Shown here: one piece after another, positions 2,517-9,872 of the stretch
Layout: each line of letters starts with the position of its first letter
Numbering within the stretch: the stretch's first letter is position 1
Origin: Mobula hypostoma
Lineage: Eukaryota
Direction of reading: 5' to 3'
DNA length: 64,000 nt
NCBI RefSeq assembly: GCF_963921235.1
Contig: NC_086097.1
Span: 101,124,001 to 101,188,000, forward strand
Translations under genes and position numbers: made by a program
Notes under the pieces: generated by a model
Databases searched by the model: none
What the model was told of the DNA's origin: nothing
The model's input: only the letters and a program-made list of their open reading frames with translations

Positions 2517-3118
2517 TGTAAGGGTTTCTTTTATGTTACTGCTAAGGTGAATAAAATGGCTTCTCTGTACTGTTAACTGCTGAGACAGTGGTTCTCTATA
2601 GCAGTATGTCTGGATTATAATTAGTGATAACGGGACTTGTATTCATTTGTTAACCAATTGGGATAGATGTTATTATTTCTGTCTGTGTGAAAGCTGTTAG
2701 TTGCGTGGGCTTTGGGGAGAAGGCACGAGAAGGATGAAGAGAGAAGACGTGGCTTGAAGAGACAGTTGCTGAACCCACTGGGCTTGGGCTCGGGGCGGGA
2801 TCCCAGGGATCGACGACGAGCAAAGGAGGATCAGCCAAAGGGAATCCGTGAGCTCCAACGTTTGTGCACTGGATATGTTTATGAGATTATTGGCACCTTT
2901 TATTTGTTTTCCTTTTCTTTTGTTTCTCTACTATTCCCATACTTAAATATAAAATCTTAATCATTTAACCGCACATTGCGGACTGAATGTTATTTCGGGG
3001 TACTGATGTTACACAGGGGACACAACATGCAGCATCCACCCAAACAATAATGCGAAGGTTTGGTCGGGGAGGGGGAGCCACCCCTGAGATCATGCCACTG
3101 GGCAAAGCAAGTCCTACG
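2517..3118 (+). repeat. 5' LTR (602 bp)
   Basis: Starts TGTAAGGG, ends CCTACG; direct repeat of 6547-7175. Confidence 0.95.
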
Positions 3119-3121
3119 TTG

Positions 3122-3139
3122 TGGGGGCTCGTCCGGGAT
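3122..3139 (+). promoter_or_regulatory. Primer-binding site complementary to tRNA-Pro
   Basis: TGGGGGCTCGTCCGGGAT, the canonical 18-nt tRNA-Pro PBS (as in MLV), 3 nt after the 5' LTR. Confidence 0.93.
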
Positions 3140-3189
3140 CTGGATTTTCGTAGGGTGCTGCGTGTTTGCCCTGTTTAAATCAGAGCCAG

Positions 3190-3990
3190 TGTGTCTCTGG
3201 GGGATTGCGGTTAGTAATGTGTACCTCTGTGGGATTGGGGTTAGTAACCGACTGAGTGGGGTGGATATTCATACCTTGGATGAATTGTTAACTCGATTTT
3301 TGAGTACGGTTAAAGCTGATGGCGAAGTTGAAAACCGCAGCGCAAAAGTTTGATAAAATGGCGGGCTCAGACCTTGCTTCAGCGCCGGCTAGCGCTGACG
3401 TCACAGAGGTGGGATTGTCAGTGTCTATTGGTGCCCTGGGTGAGGCGGGGCCAAGGGCTGTCCATACTGTCAGGAGGGAAGGGAAAGAGTGGTCGGAATA
3501 TTCCTGCTATGGCAAGCTCCACCTGATCTTTGGAATAATGTCCACCCCTAAAGGGGCGGAGCGGACCTCTCAGTTGTTAGGTGAGTGGCAGTGCTTGGCT
3601 GAGGGAAAGCGACAGGGATTGGTTGAAAGTTTGAATGGGCAGGCTACTGATGGTGTTAGAACTGTCAGGTTCAATTACCCCGTAGTGACAGCTGCCAGTT
3701 ATCTGAAAGCAGGGGAAAATGCATTTGGTTCGACTGGAAGCAAAATGCAGCACCTGGGGAGCTTTCCGTACCTGTGTCAGGAGATTGGGGAAAGGCTTTC
3801 AGTGTATCTTCTCTGGCTAGGGGTCAGCTAGATTGTTTGCAGCGCCAGGGGGATCATTTAAGGGGATCAGCCCCTCCCTCAGTTGTTCAGCTGATTAGAG
3901 AGATGTCGGGAAACTTAGTGGAGGCCCAGTGGGGGAAACAGCTTGGGGTCTCTGGGGGAACATGTTCCCAGCAATGTACCAAGGAACTCC
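3190..3990 (+). pseudogene. PNMA (paraneoplastic Ma)-type Gag, frameshifted and internally deleted
   Basis: LSGVDIHTLDELL...; YGKLHLIFGIMSTPKG..LLGEWQC..KRQGLVESLNGQA..ENAFGSTGS..QEIGERLSVYL resembles the PNMA-like capsid. Confidence 0.85.
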
Positions 3991-3994
3991 CGAA

Positions 3995-5215
3995 AGGAAA
4001 AAACCCTATTCCTGAAGGCTTAGAGGGACCACACCCCCGTGTGTCGTTACAGATAGATGGAAGCTCTGCTAAGGCCATCCTTGACACCAGGGCGCAGGTC
4101 AAGTTGCTGCACAGTTCCTTTTGCAACCGGTATTTGAAGCATTTACTCTCGACACCATTCAGGGCACTGGAAATTCGGAGTATCAGTGCTAGGGATTATT
4201 CAGAAGACGATTATTGGTCAGTGAAACTGGAGTTCTCGGAGGCCAAGGTGGGGGTGTCTGAACTTCGTGAATCGTTAGTGCTGATGTGTCCGGACACTGT
4301 TGAGACGGGCAGCGTTTCGATTCCAGAGAGGACCAACACCCCACTGATGCAGAGGCGCATGGGGGCCTGCCAGGAGGAGGCGGGTGAGAGTTGTTTGGGG
4401 GCGTTGTCTGTGCACCCCATGTTTCGAGGTGCTTGTGAGGACGTGTGTAGCAGCATTGGGCGGGTACCGAATTTAAACGAGAGCCGATGATGGTATGGCC
4501 CGGGGGAAGTATCTGAGGGTGAGACCCTCTTAGTGGATGCTCCAATGTACCACGTGGGGGGGGGAGTTGACTGCTGAAGACACCTCACAGAGAGAGAGGT
4601 TGCGGGGACTGGCCCCTGTAGCTGTGGAAGACGTAGTGTGTGTGGGTTATAGGGCTCTGAACAGGCGCACGGTCATTGACCCGAATACGGTCCTGAGGGC
4701 CGAAGACGCTATGGCCTGTTAGTGTGGTGCGACGTGGCTTAATGTGCTGGATCTGAGGAGTGGATGTTGCCAGATCCCGATGAGTGAGGCCAACAAGAAG
4801 ACGGCCGTTATAGGTCCCCTAGGAATTTTCCGGTCCGAAAAGATGCCAAAGGGCATTTCCAGAGCGCCTGCAACCTTCCCACGGGGTGTGGGGAAGACCA
4901 TGGGGGATGTGGAAGTGTTTGGAGTTCTGCCGTATGTGGATGACCGCCTAGGGTTTGGATTCGCCTTGGGGGACTATGACGCGAGGCGAGTGGCGAAGCC
5001 CGGGTGACAAAGAGTTAAAGAACTAAAACTTTCTTTGGACAGGTGCCAGGTCTGGAGAAAGATGCAGTTCATGTGTGCTCTGTGTTCAGCTGTGGAATTC
5101 TACGGTAATCCTTGGAGATTCGCCAGGGACTACGGCACAGTGCGGCACGCCTTGAATCTGCTGCTGTGTGGCTACCCTCCCTTGGAGAAGAAAGGGAGGG
5201 GGGAAAAGCGACAGA
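3995..5215 (+). pseudogene. Gypsy aspartic protease and reverse transcriptase, decayed
   Basis: AILDTRAQV (degenerate DTG motif); [41 protein letters not shown] (YxDD); connection region FARDYGTVRHALNLLLCGYPP. Confidence 0.9.
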
Positions 5216-5244
5216 AGCAAAGTGTAAAATGTGGAGTAGTTTTT

Positions 5245-6055
5245 GGCCGGCAGAGTTTGGTGCAATCTGAGAGAAATGACCCGATATACCAGTTGAACTT
5301 CCTGGTGTTGGAACAGACAATGGTGGACCTGGGGCTGGAAACCCAGGTCGTCAATCGGAATGAGACACTGGAGAGAGATGGGATTTGCACCGCTGAACTG
5401 AGCGCTCAGAAATGCAGGCTGGAGACTGCAAGAGTGCCGCACTTTTGGGGCAGACCTCGAAGACTTAGAGTCCACACTCATCAATGGAGACGGAGAACCA
5501 AAATTTTGAGCAGGAACTGCGGCCACTTACTGATGAATTAATCCAGAAAAGATTGGAAGACTTACAAGTTGGGGAAGACGAAGGAAGCTGTCTAGGCCAA
5601 CAGAAAACCGAGAGCCCAGAGAAGGGAGTTTGATTACATTTCCGAGGAGGTGAAGCAATCGAGGACAGATCTTGGAAAAGGGAAGCAGATGCTTGAAGGG
5701 AACCTGAAGATGACCATCGACAGTTTAAATGAAGTGGAAAAACTGAAAGTTGACCTGGAAAAAGTCATCAGGAAGAAAAAGCTAGAGATAAGTTCAGTGG
5801 ACACTAAACTGGAGGCTGAACATTCTTTAACTGCTGCTTTTCAGGTCGGCATGGAAGAAGCTGGTGGAGTAACTATGTCTCAGATTGAGACGGCCAAGAA
5901 GCGTGAGTCAGAACTGCTGAGACTGTGACGAGAGGTGGAGGAGTCCAAGAAGAAGCTGACGTCTCGATTACAGGAGGCTGAAGAGGCTGTAGAAGCAGTC
6001 CAGGCCAAGTGCTTCAGTTTGGAGAAAATCAAACAGCAGCTACCAATTGAGGAAA
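5245..6055 (+). pseudogene. Captured intronless sarcomeric myosin heavy chain rod fragment (MYH16-like)
   Basis: [61 protein letters not shown] and [27 protein letters not shown] are recognisable myosin II rod segments. Confidence 0.9.
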
Positions 6056-6533
6056 TGAGGAAAAATACGGATTCGAAGGATGATGTGCTGGATGTGTGGT
6101 ACATGCTGCCTTTCACTAACTTCCCCTTGATTGAGGAAGAGACTTTTGGCCCTTCTCCCACTGAGTGAGGTGCAGTGGGGAGGACTAGCTGTGGGCAGCC
6201 TGGGTTACAGCAGGACCCTGAAGGAAAAGAAGGGGGCTCCCGGACACGGGAAAGGGGGCTCCGAGTTACAGTGGGGGCATGAGTGAGAGATTGAGAGAGG
6301 AGTTGGCAAGCAGACCCAAGGTATCCCCAGTTGCGTCCGAGCCTGAAGGGTTTAGGTGAGGGGGTACGGAGGTTTTGGAGGATTAGGAAACTCCCAGATA
6401 AGTTGGCCTATGTAGCGCCTGGGGAACAGGGTGTAAGGTCTACTGTTTGGGGAGCAATGTCACTGTTTGGGTTTTTGTATCTGCAGGAAGGGTTGGCGAG
6501 TTATTTAGAAGTCATGAGGACATGACTAAATTT

Positions 6534-6546
6534 GGTGGGGGGAGAG
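6534..6546 (+). promoter_or_regulatory. Polypurine tract
   Basis: GGTGGGGGGAGAG immediately before the 3' LTR. Confidence 0.85.
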
Positions 6547-7175
6547 TGCAAGGGTTTCTTCTTTTATGTTACCGCTAAGGTGAATAAAATGGCTTCTCTG
6601 TACTGTTAACTGCTGAGACAGTGGTTCTCTATAGCAGTATGCTTGGATTATAATTAGTGATAATGGGACTTGTATTCATTTGTTAACCAATTGGGATAGA
6701 TGTTATTCTTTCTGTCTGTGTGAAAGCTGTTAGTTGCGCGGGCTTTGGGGAGAAGGCGCAAGGAGGATGAAGCGAGAAGACGTGGCTTGAGGAGACAGTT
6801 GCCGGACCTGCTGGGCCTGGGCTCGGGGCGGGAGCCAGGCCTGGGCTCGGGGTGGCAGCCCAGGAGTCGACGACGAGCGCAGGAGGATCAGCGAAAGGGA
6901 ATCCGTGAGCTCTAACATTTGTGCACTGGACATGTTTATGAGATTATTGGCGCCTTTCATTTGTTTTCTTTTTCTTTTGTTTCTCTACCAACCCCATACT
7001 TAAATATAAAATCTTAATCATTTAACCGCACCTTGTGGCCTGAATGTTATTTCGGGGTACTGATGTTACACAGGGGACACAACACGCAGCATCCACCCAA
7101 ACAAGAATGCGAAGGTTTGGTCGGGGAGGGGGAGCCACCCCTGAGATCATGCCACTGGGCAAAGTGAGTCGTACA
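6547..7175 (+). repeat. 3' LTR (629 bp)
   Basis: Starts TGCAAGGG, ends GTACA; has a 24-bp tandem duplication (6814-6861) and 3 extra bases relative to the 5' LTR. Confidence 0.95.
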
Positions 7176-7834
7176 TAGTACTTTGATTATAAACATACTT
7201 TGAATTTAAAAAAAGAAAAAGAATTCCAAGTTAATATGTTCCTGTTAGAGAGGAGGGCAAGCTGGCAGGATTGGGGAACCCTGGTTGATGTAGGATTTTG
7301 ATGCTCTGGTCAGGAAAAGGTGAGAGACACTCATGTATCATCAGGTAGGATCAACTGATTCCCTAAGTAGTATAAAGGATGTAGGAGTACACAAGAGGGA
7401 AATCAGGAGGGCAAAAAGAGGATGTGAGACAGTTTTGGCAAATAAGATAAAGGAGGATTCTATTACATTTATCTATTCTATACCAACTGTCCACAACCAG
7501 AGCCTTTTGCAGTCTGAGGAAGAGCATATTTAAAGACTAAAAGCTTGAACCCAGCTTAAAGCTCAAGGTCTACTGGGCAGCGATGATCTCTGTCCCCTGT
7601 ATGTTTAAGTAGCAAGGACTAGACACATCAAACCACTGGAAACACAAAATCGCAAAATCCTGCAAATCCATCAGCAGGTTTAAGTAAAACAATATTGTAT
7701 GCTTTAATCACACCAACTGAGGGTCTAATTATACTTAATCAACCTCAATTGACCAGCCATGCCATTGGAAAATCCAACATCAGATTGTTAGCTCCCAAAA
7801 AGGGCAATACTCCAGGCTCTATCATGGGAAAAAG

Positions 7835-9872
7835 ATTAGACCATAAGGCACAGGTGCAGAATTGGGCCATTTGGCCCACCAAGTCTGCTCCTCTATTCAA
7901 TCATGGCTGATCCCTTTGTCCCCCTCCTCAGCCCCACTCCCCAGCCTTCTTCCTGTAACCTCTGAAGCTGTGTCCAATCAAGAACCTATCAAGCTCTGCC
8001 TTAAATACACCTAATGACCTGGTCTCCACAACTGCCCGTGGTATAAAATTATACAAATTCACACTCTCTGGCTCAAGAAATTTCTCCATATCTCCATTTT
8101 AAATGGATGCCCCCCTAACCTAAGACCTCTTGTCCTAAACCCCCACCATGAGAAACATCCTTTGCACATCTACTCTGTCTAAGCCTTTCAACATTCAAAA
8201 GGTTTCAAAGAGATTCCCCGTCTGTCTAGGTACCATATCCGATGCGGACTTTGGTGACCATGGTTTTCCATATAGATCCTTCATTTTTTTGGATGACTTC
8301 CATTTCCTCGATGTGTAGCCACCTGGCTATGCTTTTGATGTACATAAGCCGAGGTCTTCCTGCAGGTTTACTCCCCTCAATCTTTCCAGAGTATGAGTTT
8401 TTCTAGTTCATCTTTCCGCATGATGTGTCCTAGGAATCTGAGTTGTCTTTCTCTTATTGTTGGTATGAGTGATCGAACTGCTTGGGCTCTTCTGAGAACT
8501 TCTTCATTTGATGTGTGTGTGGTCCATGATATTTTTAACATTCTCCTGTAGAACCATAATTCAGCTGCTTCTAGTCTCTTTTCCATTGCTGTGGAAATGA
8601 TCCAGCACTCACTTCCATAAGTCAGGATAGAATAAATGTAGCACTGCAGTATTCTGTTTTTAGTGTACATGCTCATCTTTCTGTCTGTTAATATGGTCTT
8701 CATTTTTTGGAAAGCTTCTTTCGCCATTGCTATTCTGTATTTGATATCTGTGTCACACCTGCCATTACTTGTTATTAGGCTGCCAAGATATCTGAATTTG
8801 TTGACTTGTTTGATGTTTGTATTTCTGATCTTGATCACACATTGTGGGATGTTTGTCTTTCTGGAGATGACCATGCTTTCTGTCTTCTTGGTGTTGATTG
8901 AGAGGCCTCTACGATTACTTTCTGCCGCCACTATAGTGAGTAGTTCTTGAAGTTTTGTTTCTGAGTCAGCTATTAGTACAATGTCATCAGCATATCTGAT
9001 GTTATTTATATTATGGCCTCCAATTGTGAATCCTATGTCTTTGATACTTCTCAAGATATTTTCACTATACAGGTTGAATAAGTCTGGCGAAAAGACACAA
9101 CCTTGCCTGACTCCTCTCATGATATTCACATACTCACTCACTTCTCCTTCTATTCTGATTGATGCTGCCTGATTCCAGTATAAGTTTCTTAAAAAACGTA
9201 TATCTTTCCCATCTATGTCAAGATCTTGAAGCATTTCCAGAAGATCTTGCTGTCTGACAGTGTCAAAAGCTTTTGTATAGTCAATGAAACATAGGTAGAC
9301 GTCCGTAGCATGAAAGTTGCATTTCTGGTTCCAGTGTTTTCCACAAAGCTGCATTGTTCCCCCTCTTCATTCTAAGTTCCAGTGAGTACTGACACAAAGC
9401 CATCAAATGTTCCTCCTATGGTAACCCTTTCATTCCCAGAATTATCCTTGTAAACCTCCTCTGAAACCTCTCCAATGCCAGCACAGCTTTTCTTAGATGA
9501 GAAGCCCAAAACAGTTCACAATACTCAAGGTGAGGCCTCATCAGTGCCGTATAAAGTCTCAGCATCACATCCTTGCTCTTGCATTCTAGCCCTCTTGAAA
9601 TGAATGCTAAAATTACATTTGCCTTCCTCACCACTGACTCGACCTGCAAGGTGTTCTGCACAAGGATTCCCAAGTCCCTTGGCATCTCAGATTTTTGGAT
9701 TTTCTCCCCATTTAGAAAATAGTCTGCACATTTATTTCCACTACCAAAGTGCATGACCATGCATTTTCCAACATTGTATTTCATTTACCACTTTCTTGCC
9801 CATTCTCCTAAACTGTCCCAGTCTTTCTGCAGCCTACCTGTTTCCTCAACACACCCTGCCCCTCCACCAGAT
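7835..9872 (-). mobile_element. CR1 LINE 3' end, interrupted by an RTE element
   Basis: ORF 9416-9784: KCMVMHFG...RLYTALMRPHLEYC...QRRFTRII; CR1 3' tail near 7835. Confidence 0.9.
8220..9356 (-). mobile_element. RTE-clade LINE, 5'-truncated, RT frame open for 325 aa
   Basis: CFIDYTKAFD, RGVRQGCVFSPDLFNLYSE, IRYADD, LTYGSECW; TSD TTCCCC (8214-8219 and 9357-9362). Confidence 0.92.

Follow-up and report, generated by a model that had tools for sequence, protein, structure and literature searches.

A Ty3/gypsy-type retrotransposon family of rays that carries an intron-less fragment of a sarcomeric myosin heavy chain gene

The window analysed here is a 64,000 nt stretch of the genome of the ray Mobula hypostoma (NCBI RefSeq assembly GCF_963921235.1, NC_086097.1, positions 101,124,001 to 101,188,000). 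Positions 2517–7175 of the window are occupied by a decayed, non-autonomous long terminal repeat (LTR) retrotransposon of the Ty3/gypsy type, and within its pol region lie some 720 nt (c. 5330–6052) derived from the rod of a sarcomeric myosin heavy chain (MYH). An earlier reading of the sequence alone (here called the original prediction) had proposed that this element carries captured host myosin sequence. In our view the element very probably belongs to a non-autonomous Ty3/gypsy family in which spliced mRNA of a donor MYH gene replaced most of the RNase H domain and all of the integrase, and which was then amplified.

RESULTS

The myosin segment and its donor gene

The donor lies in the same genome: it is a divergent MYH gene of sarcomeric type, located at C68:14.61–14.71 Mb in the 3.48 Gb chromosome-scale assembly that was searched (contigs are cited by our own labels). 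Nucleotide matches to the element were found for three exons of this gene: exon c (C68:14612356-14612504) matches window 5627–5775 with 85.9% identity over 149 nt (E 1e-47), exon d (C68:14615500-14615569) matches 5775–5844 with 87.1% over 70 nt, and exon i (C68:14707333-14707448) matches 5940–6052 with 88.8% over 116 nt (E 1e-39). The paralogues on C40 and C2 reach 72–74% over 68 nt, and a gene at C36:112.72 Mb reaches 77.8–79% over 36–43 nt only. The match between element and donor stops at the borders of exon c and restarts at exon d, the intervening intron of 2,995 bp being exactly absent, and the joint lies at the shared G of ..AAGAA/G.., which is the LKK/K junction (a slash within a sequence marks an exon junction). 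The distance from exon c to exon i is 95 kb in the donor and 165 nt in the element. The exact loss of the intron, together with the reduction of 95 kb to 165 nt, indicates that the template supplied by the donor was a spliced mRNA.

The paralogue on C40 has canonical AG/GT splice sites at QA/EQDN, TENK/VKNL, LDD/LEGS, LKK/KDF and LEEAK/KKL, through which the element reads in order. The first of these lies in a stretch that we reassign to RNase H (see below) and is not counted as a myosin junction; of the others, c/d is shown on the donor itself, and a/b, b/c and h/i only on the C40 exon map. The layout of the rod segment is as follows.

5331–5626, + strand: parts of exons a and b (AELSAQKCRLE, DLEDLESTL, TENQ/NFEQEL, RLEDLQVGEDE), with three frame changes; from tblastn against paralogue C40
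5629–5774, + strand: donor exon c; 85.9% nucleotide identity over 149 nt
5775–5844, + strand: first 70 nt of donor exon d, fused to exon c; 87.1% over 70 nt
5851–5925, + strand: internal piece of exon e, following an internal deletion; 64% over 25 aa to C40 exon e, MYH residues ~1148–1175
5929–6052, + strand: end of exon h and exon i; 88.8% over 116 nt, MYH7 residues 1385–1424

Protein comparisons agree with this layout. In phmmer searches of PDB chains, window 5596–5925 matched Myosin-7 (MYH7) residues 1035–1111 (E 2.4e-4), with a second stretch at about 1148–1175, and window 5929–6165 matched MYH7 1385–1424 (E 4e-8; 30 of 38 residues identical to 1385–1422) as well as a construct of MYH7 1361–1425 (E 3e-10). 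Towards the 5' side, tblastn against C40 aligned 5329–5424, 5432–5497 and 5535–5612 in the same order at 38–41% identity. As sequence evidence goes, the protein matches alone make a moderate case for a myosin rod, and the nucleotide matches to the donor exons are decisive.

The intron-less MYH rod piece within an LTR retrotransposon, and the read-through of the intron at LKK/KDF, are thus as the original prediction described them, the latter now resting on the donor's own intron. The further claim of consecutive rod segments in native order from 5245 holds for homology and order, five or more exons being colinear. The myosin sequence nevertheless starts near 5330, where ..LETQVVNRNETLE.. is aligned against ..LEAKVKELGERLE.., and the segment listed first (SLVQSERNDPIYQLNFLVLEQ, 5245 to ~5330) proved to be the RNase H motif of Ty3/gypsy pol. 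The rod is also discontinuous, with internal deletions that lie off the exon borders. The window copy is decayed inside: its myosin part needs three frame changes and has a TGA at 5926–5928.

Could the coiled coil be native to the retroelement, or a generic one that resembles myosin by composition only? The lack of a Pfam Myosin_tail_1 match on the element open reading frames (ORFs), and the reassignment of one supposed myosin piece to RNase H, are what such a reading would lead one to expect. An exon-bounded identity of 86–89% with three exons of a single host MYH gene, the close agreement with MYH7 1385–1422 and the colinearity across five or more exons all run counter to it, and we give it next to no credence. 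The nucleotide matches to donor exons c, d and i refute it.

Nor do we see more than a vanishing chance that the direction was the reverse, with the C68 'exons' being element fragments exonised into a host locus. A full-length C68 protein was not found in the protein collection and the exons are widely spaced (95 kb), which would suit that view. Against it, the exon borders and phases are those of other sarcomeric MYH genes, the exons extend past the element junctions as true myosin (IEVEELGIDLEK, QRKIKEYQ) and have no flanking element sequence, and a homologue in an electric ray, free of element parts, matches exon c at 88–90% and exon d at 80%.

Capture junctions, internal deletions and the route of capture

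The 3' capture junction, at 6052/6053, falls in the middle of exon i: beyond ..ATCGAGG the two part, the host continuing as ..ATCGAGGTAGAGGAGCTG.. (IEVEEL) and the element as ..ATTGAGGAAATGAGG.. (IEEMRK). Around the myosin piece there is neither a poly(A) nor a target-site duplication (TSD) of the type left by long interspersed elements (LINEs), and exon i runs straight into the ORF of a short tail. The absence of poly(A) and of a TSD of its own, together with the mid-exon 3' end, favours capture by an LTR element over LINE retroposition. The piece lies in frame between the first 30–50 residues of RNase H and the tail.

In the ancestor, some 0.7–0.9 kb from a spliced host sarcomeric MYH mRNA would have been swapped into pol, probably by two template switches of reverse transcriptase (RT) between the element RNA and a co-packaged myosin mRNA. 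Internal deletions would have followed, several of them between similar words of the heptad repeat. The chimera, with its LTRs, primer-binding site (PBS) and polypurine tract (PPT), may then have relied on an autonomous relative, whose RT and integrase would have copied it whole in trans, and would so have been amplified to hundreds to thousands of copies, each integration producing a 4 bp target duplication.

An identical end product would be expected from events at the DNA level, in which all or part of a processed myosin retrocopy entered a genomic copy of the element, by insertion or recombination, and the product then suffered deletions, without any template switching. The genome does hold other intron-less Myosin_tail_1 stretches, e.g. 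C18:48745523-48746731, and many later deletions within the family are evident. LINE-made retrocopies, however, usually retain the 3' end, whereas the captured piece is internal to the mRNA (approximately MYH7 residues 920–1424), has both ends in coding sequence and the 3' end in mid-exon, lacks a 3' untranslated region, poly(A) and a TSD of its own, and is in frame with pol at both sides. We regard an origin at the DNA level as unlikely and prefer capture by template switching during reverse transcription.

Three deletions could be placed within the rod. One joins ..LTAAFQ (within exon d) to ..MEEAGG (within exon e), off the exon borders; a second joins ..ELLRL (exon e) to ..EVEESK (end of exon h), with the loss of about 210 residues; and a shorter one lies within exon b of the window copy relative to another copy, L070. 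Several are bounded by similar words (RLEE.., LEEA..), and we infer that slippage or template jumps on the heptad repeat would account for them.

Contigs from four public runs of one other study span 6052/6053, with at least 31 bases on each side, and also the c/d junction; the runs are only guessed to be RNA, and we do not read the contigs as evidence of transcription. Loose contig ends at 6052 match donor exon i and cannot show splicing. Contigs that align from 5852 have a different preceding sequence, which in our reading translates like the exon-e text upstream of EEAGG.

A dispersed family shared among rays

Both capture junctions recur throughout the genome. A 29-base word across the 3' junction was found at 374 dispersed sites (at most three mismatches) and a 30-base word across the 5' junction at 429, with no site for either reversed control. 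A 1-kb query gave 46 matches from the 40 candidates scored (of 1978 at first look), at 82–91% identity and on many chromosomes. With the donor-like exon c of the C36 gene as query, all 150 scored candidates matched, three of them being host genes, and a protein query covering the protease (PR) and RT of copy L070 found all 132 scored (from 5127 candidates) to be 86–100% identical.

In the better-preserved copies a single frame encodes gag, protease, truncated RT, RNase H stub, myosin coiled coil and tail, and open frames in the family measure 600–836 aa. Fifteen copies form a young group with mutual identities of 92.7–96.2%. This group is 79–80% identical to the donor in nucleotide sequence and the window copy 86–88%; the greater distance of the young group fits a lineage that went on evolving while active.

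Several structural types can be told apart among the copies by their internal deletions. Type A, to which the window copy conforms, keeps more myosin and less RNase H; in another subfamily RNase H is kept as far as F-E-V-E-T-E (..DCLYGIKFEVETE) and myosin starts later. Both 5' types would be accounted for if a single longer ancestor had lost different stretches in two separate deletions.

At nine other copies inspected for target duplications, a perfect 4 bp repeat was present in two (CCAG and TGAC) and three of four bases agreed in a further two. In three window-type copies (L002, L005 and L010) the last ~72 nt of the LTR could not be aligned to window 7103–7175 / 3046–3118, which suggests LTR variants or recombinant copies.

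The family is also seen outside M. hypostoma. The junction of myosin and tail (...QQLPI-x-x-MRKNTDS...) is present in proteins of Hypanus sabinus, Mobula birostris and M. hypostoma, and shorter related fragments occur in proteins of Hemitrygon akajei. The presence of the same junctions genome-wide and in other rays points to one capture, followed by amplification as a family. Judged from these sequences, the capture would be older than the split between stingrays and mantas, or the element may have moved between them. Two stingray gene models (P0001 and P0007), named SDHAF3 isoform X1 and TMEM192 isoform X1, contain the myosin–tail part or the whole gag-to-tail frame; this may be either exonisation or an annotation artefact.

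That the assembly had fused a retrotransposon with a myosin gene has practically no probability left: the junctions lie at hundreds of sites on many chromosomes, the same junction is found in proteins of other species, and the contigs from another study span 6052/6053. These recurrent junctions, other species and independent contigs refute the artefact. Misassembly had been named beforehand as a danger to the original prediction, which had also suggested a mobile myosin-carrying family and the counting of junction copies with distinct TSDs; the 374 and 429 sites, set against controls of zero, speak for the family, and the perfect duplications CCAG and TGAC at two of the nine copies for independent integrations.

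Anatomy of the element and its insertion

The structural features of the element, all on the + strand, are these.

2513–2516, + strand: 5' copy of the TSD, TAGT; identical four bases at 7176–7179
2517–3118, + strand: 5' LTR, starting TG and ending CG; 602 bp, 93.2% identity to the 3' LTR
3122–3139, + strand: PBS tgggggctcgtccgggat, an 18-mer, two bases past the 5' LTR; by direct reading
3304–3828, + strand: gag remnant of PNMA type; Pfam PF14893, E 8.5e-13, ORF residues 86–172
4008–4300 (approximate), + strand: protease-like region (IPEGLEGP...DTRAQV...); by homology with sister ORF P0007
4534–5230, + strand: RT remnant and connection region, broken by stops; RVT_1 weak, homology via P0007
5236–5330 (3' limit ±~10 nt), + strand: N-terminal RNase H motif of pol (VVFGRQSLVQSERNDPIYQLNFLVLEQTMVD); by alignment with polyproteins
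6053–6168, + strand: in-frame tail after myosin; kept in sister ORFs P0001–P0007, no Pfam family
6534–6546, + strand: PPT ggtggggggagag, directly adjoining the 3' LTR; by direct reading
6547–7175, + strand: 3' LTR with TG..CA ends, 629 bp; by direct-repeat comparison
7176–7179, + strand: 3' copy of the TSD, TAGT; by direct reading

When one TAGT is removed, the flanks form the uninterrupted tail of another repeat, and this continuity shows the insertion to be clean. Both the set of LTRs, PBS, PPT and TSD and the integration as one unit had been predicted, and both were borne out. The LTR pair has 41 differences over 602 aligned bases (31 transitions and 10 transversions) and 27 gap columns. 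The resulting Kimura two-parameter distance of 0.072 would place the insertion some tens of millions of years ago if neutral change is assumed to run at ~1e-9 per site and year.

The coding remnants were placed largely through the sister ORF P0007 (729 aa, from the protein collection), in which the order is gag, protease, RT, myosin, tail. Its RT is 41–46% identical to polyproteins P0017 and P0015 (E 6e-37 and 3e-34), with a gap of 33 residues at the N-terminus relative to P0017, and its protease is 37% identical to P0015 over 94 aa (E 3e-16); the three long polyproteins related to it carry RVT_1, RT_RNaseH, Integrase_H2C2 and rve. Within the window, RVT_1 on 4723–5004 (E 0.0049) stayed below the cut-off, and the RT connection region aligns to P0017 residues 1040–1127. 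The start of RNase H (VVFGRQSLVQSERNDPIYQLNFLVLEQ..) aligns to P0017 residues 1203–1222 and P0016 residues 746–766, and residues 42–77 of sister ORF P0011 (RNYPTYQLNFLALEQTTVAEELNDCLYGIKFEVETE) share 18 of 36 positions (50%, E 2e-6) with P0015 732–766. In the element RNase H is cut off after about 30–50 residues.

Only 365 nt separate the stop codon of the tail (6168) from the PPT, and the ORFs of that stretch held no Pfam family and no integrase. When the tail (6053–6168) was compared with the three nearest autonomous polyproteins, P0015 and P0017 among them, it did not resemble their C-termini, and the earlier description of it as a C-terminal tail of pol is not upheld. The view that myosin had replaced RNase H and integrase needs similar qualification: the element has no integrase of its own, whereas RNase H is truncated and the first ~85 nt of the supposed myosin interval are retained from it. 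To judge by its sequence, the element is of Ty3/gypsy type with a damaged RT and a missing integrase, and is not autonomous.

The PBS tgggggctcgtccgggat is of the tRNA-Pro type, as we take it to be. The complement of its 16-mer has 803 exact sites in the genome, all resembling element PBS sites, and no tRNA gene was present at the three of these loci that were scanned. The 803 sites exceed the count for either junction word; the surplus may come from other families of elements, or from solo internal fragments, with the same PBS.

The window holds no second copy of the myosin-carrying element. The repeat whose tail flanks the insertion (..ctcacct..aac..tgattccacaa..) is present in two copies, at 1090–1350 and at 2286–2516 plus 7180–7230, the element lying inside the second. 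Two remnants of non-LTR retrotransposons are found on the minus strand, one at 8380–9366 (a 329-aa frame, RVT_1 E 3e-27) and one of the endonuclease–RT type at 636–1064 (Exo_endo_phos_2 E 2e-4, below the cut-off).

Other myosin genes of the host

Sarcomeric MYH loci of the host comprise one on C40, one on C2, a cluster of eight at C68:15.3–15.9 Mb and the two divergent genes at C36:112.72 and C68:14.61–14.71 Mb. The C36 gene (C36:112718211-112729026), a second divergent gene of sarcomeric type with LKMTIENLNEMERAKLDLEE, is a relative of the donor and not the source. A genome search with Pfam PF01576 retrieved non-muscle MYH genes and intron-less pieces and missed the donor; a back-translated EEAVEAVNAKC pattern had no match in the genome, and a looser one had three, all sarcomeric exons, two of them in more distant paralogues. 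No further myosin exons were present in the 6 kb upstream of donor exon c or the 10 kb upstream of exon i.

Exon c of the donor includes the signature that the original prediction had linked to MYH16. The NCBI automatic name of related ORFs and of the electric-ray homologue is 'putative uncharacterized protein MYH16', with others named myosin-6-like or myosin-7B-like, and the best full-length relative in the database is a lungfish 'myosin-7-like' protein (39%). A search of representative sequences, the names of protein clusters and the Atlas likewise yielded no more than automatic or generic myosin names. The donor may plausibly be called MYH16-like, orthology with MYH16 being a matter of these automatic names alone. 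The electric ray cited above is Narcine bancroftii, a short protein model of which gives the best element-free match to exon c, at 90% identity, and looks like the host gene; when the genome was searched with P0025, the electric-ray protein, the 150 matches listed were all copies of the element.

The introns of the donor are very long, the 95 kb from exon c to exon i corresponding to 7 kb in paralogue C40. No full-length donor protein was present in the protein collection, and the electric-ray homologue is modelled as pieces of 225–234 aa. In humans MYH16 is a decaying gene, and by analogy the donor may be decaying also.

Intron-less Myosin_tail_1 stretches with stops occur at C18:48745523-48746731, C50:30689110-30689772, C184:304888-305403, C157:172388-172903 and C21:138691427-138692201, the longest covering profile positions 514–920 in a single piece. 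They look like processed pseudogenes or other carried fragments, and one such locus (L031) is non-muscle-like in appearance.

Selection on the myosin part

The ratio of non-synonymous to synonymous substitution (dN/dS) of the myosin part relative to the donor exons is 0.45–0.46 over 97–109 codons, and pairwise values among the 15 young copies are 0.51 for myosin, 0.72 for PR–RT and 1.03 for the tail. Variants shared between copies are distributed over the three codon positions as 8/18/26 in myosin and 27/24/25 in PR–RT, and myosin singletons as 41/38/40; a chi-square calculated by hand on the codon-position counts gave p ~0.03, uncorrected. The sample was small and consisted of copies picked because their frames were open, and the NG86 method is biased for codons rich in Glu and Lys. 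We take these figures as a hint only of selection, and our preferred reading of the myosin piece is as passenger sequence.

A function is a more speculative and, on balance, doubtful possibility: the coiled coil might be kept as an oligomerising module of the element, or the MYH16-like gene might be a target of small RNAs from antisense copies. By dimerising or oligomerising, the module may bring the Gag–PR–truncated RT fusion and the element RNA into helper particles, and this, if true, would explain the thousands of copies, the long-lived activity and the open frames of 600–836 aa. On the second reading, also a bold one, hundreds of antisense-capable copies, 80–89% identical to the donor, would feed small RNAs.

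DISCUSSION

Capture of a spliced MYH mRNA by a Ty3/gypsy-type element, with later spread in trans, has to be weighed against several results that count the other way. Among the 132 scored PR–RT copies there was no autonomous partner with the same LTRs, the longest frame being 836 aa, and the nearest full polyproteins in the database are only 41–46% identical in RT. An uninterrupted parental element was found neither in the database nor in those 132 copies; nor was an ancestral copy found with both the longer RNase H and the longer myosin. Donor exons a, b, e and h were not recovered, and their junctions rest on the paralogue map. The Pfam profile Myosin_tail_1 found no match at E 0.1 on the element ORFs tested. 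Lastly, five of the nine copies inspected for TSDs gave no clear answer, four of them failing to resolve and one lying ambiguously in an AT-rich site.

Capture of host mRNA by LTR elements is known from plants, yeast, flies and a few vertebrates, nearly always in one or a few copies. In the ray family one can read which gene was the donor, exactly where its exons were spliced and where the captured piece joins the element at either end, and the chimera has become a major repeat family, with at least 374–429 junction copies and up to ~5,000 candidates at first look, in a genome of 3.5 Gb. It offers a dated natural experiment on a defective chimera out-competing its helper, and a clean marker for batoid phylogeny and for the dating of transposon activity. 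It also calls for caution in annotation: public models named MYH16, myosin-6/7-like, SDHAF3 isoform X1 and TMEM192 isoform X1 contain the element frame. No published account of a myosin-carrying LTR family of rays was found in the literature searched.

The nearest parallel is LTR-mediated retroposition, described in flies, mosquito, zebrafish, chicken and mammals (Tan et al., 2016; PMC5131818). There, as in the ray family, a retrocopy of a host mRNA lies within a discontinuous LTR retrotransposon, template switches are inferred, the chimera can be recopied as a non-autonomous element and in-frame products are possible; Tan et al. also document microsimilarity at the switch points. Their cases, from fly, mosquito, zebrafish, chicken and mouse, are young and of single or few copies, whereas the ray family numbers hundreds to thousands and extends across ray genera. 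Maize Bs1, as summarized in the same source (PMC5131818), likewise has partial host exons in an LTR retrotransposon, with the same switch points in all copies; it has one to five copies and pieces of three genes, whereas the ray chimera, in an animal host, draws on a single gene and shows the same junction in at least 374 copies.

Among vertebrates, crocodilian endogenous retroviruses captured the mRNAs of nectin3 (six insertions) and KIT-ligand (Chong et al., 2014; PMC4299795). These share with the ray family a vertebrate LTR element in which a spliced host mRNA displaced an element gene, mobilization without a full gene set of their own and a capture that predates speciation (PMC4299795). 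They are retroviruses in which a complete ORF stands in place of env and is under purifying selection (PMC4299795). The ray family, in contrast, has a deleted rod fragment fused into pol, far more copies and weak evidence of selection.

The displacement of element genes by spliced host sequence also recalls oncogene transduction, as does the dependence on a helper that is probable for the ray family. In acutely transforming retroviruses, spliced host sequence replaces viral genes and the defective chimera needs a helper. The ray family differs in showing nothing to suggest capture by read-through from an insertion upstream, in that its passenger is a structural coiled coil without growth-control function, and in being a genomic repeat of the germ line.

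Finally, the ray family resembles the non-autonomous large retrotransposon derivatives (LARD), terminal-repeat retrotransposons in miniature (TRIM) and mouse MaLR (with MERVL) in keeping LTRs, PBS and PPT without an integrase, and such elements can out-number their autonomous partner (for MaLR, PMC5131818). They are not known to carry a recognizable piece of a host gene, whereas the ray family does and keeps in addition a long gag–PR–truncated RT frame. In mechanism and anatomy, then, the capture is a case of known LTR-mediated retroposition; it is unusual in its copy number, its persistence and the in-frame rod fragment that it carries.

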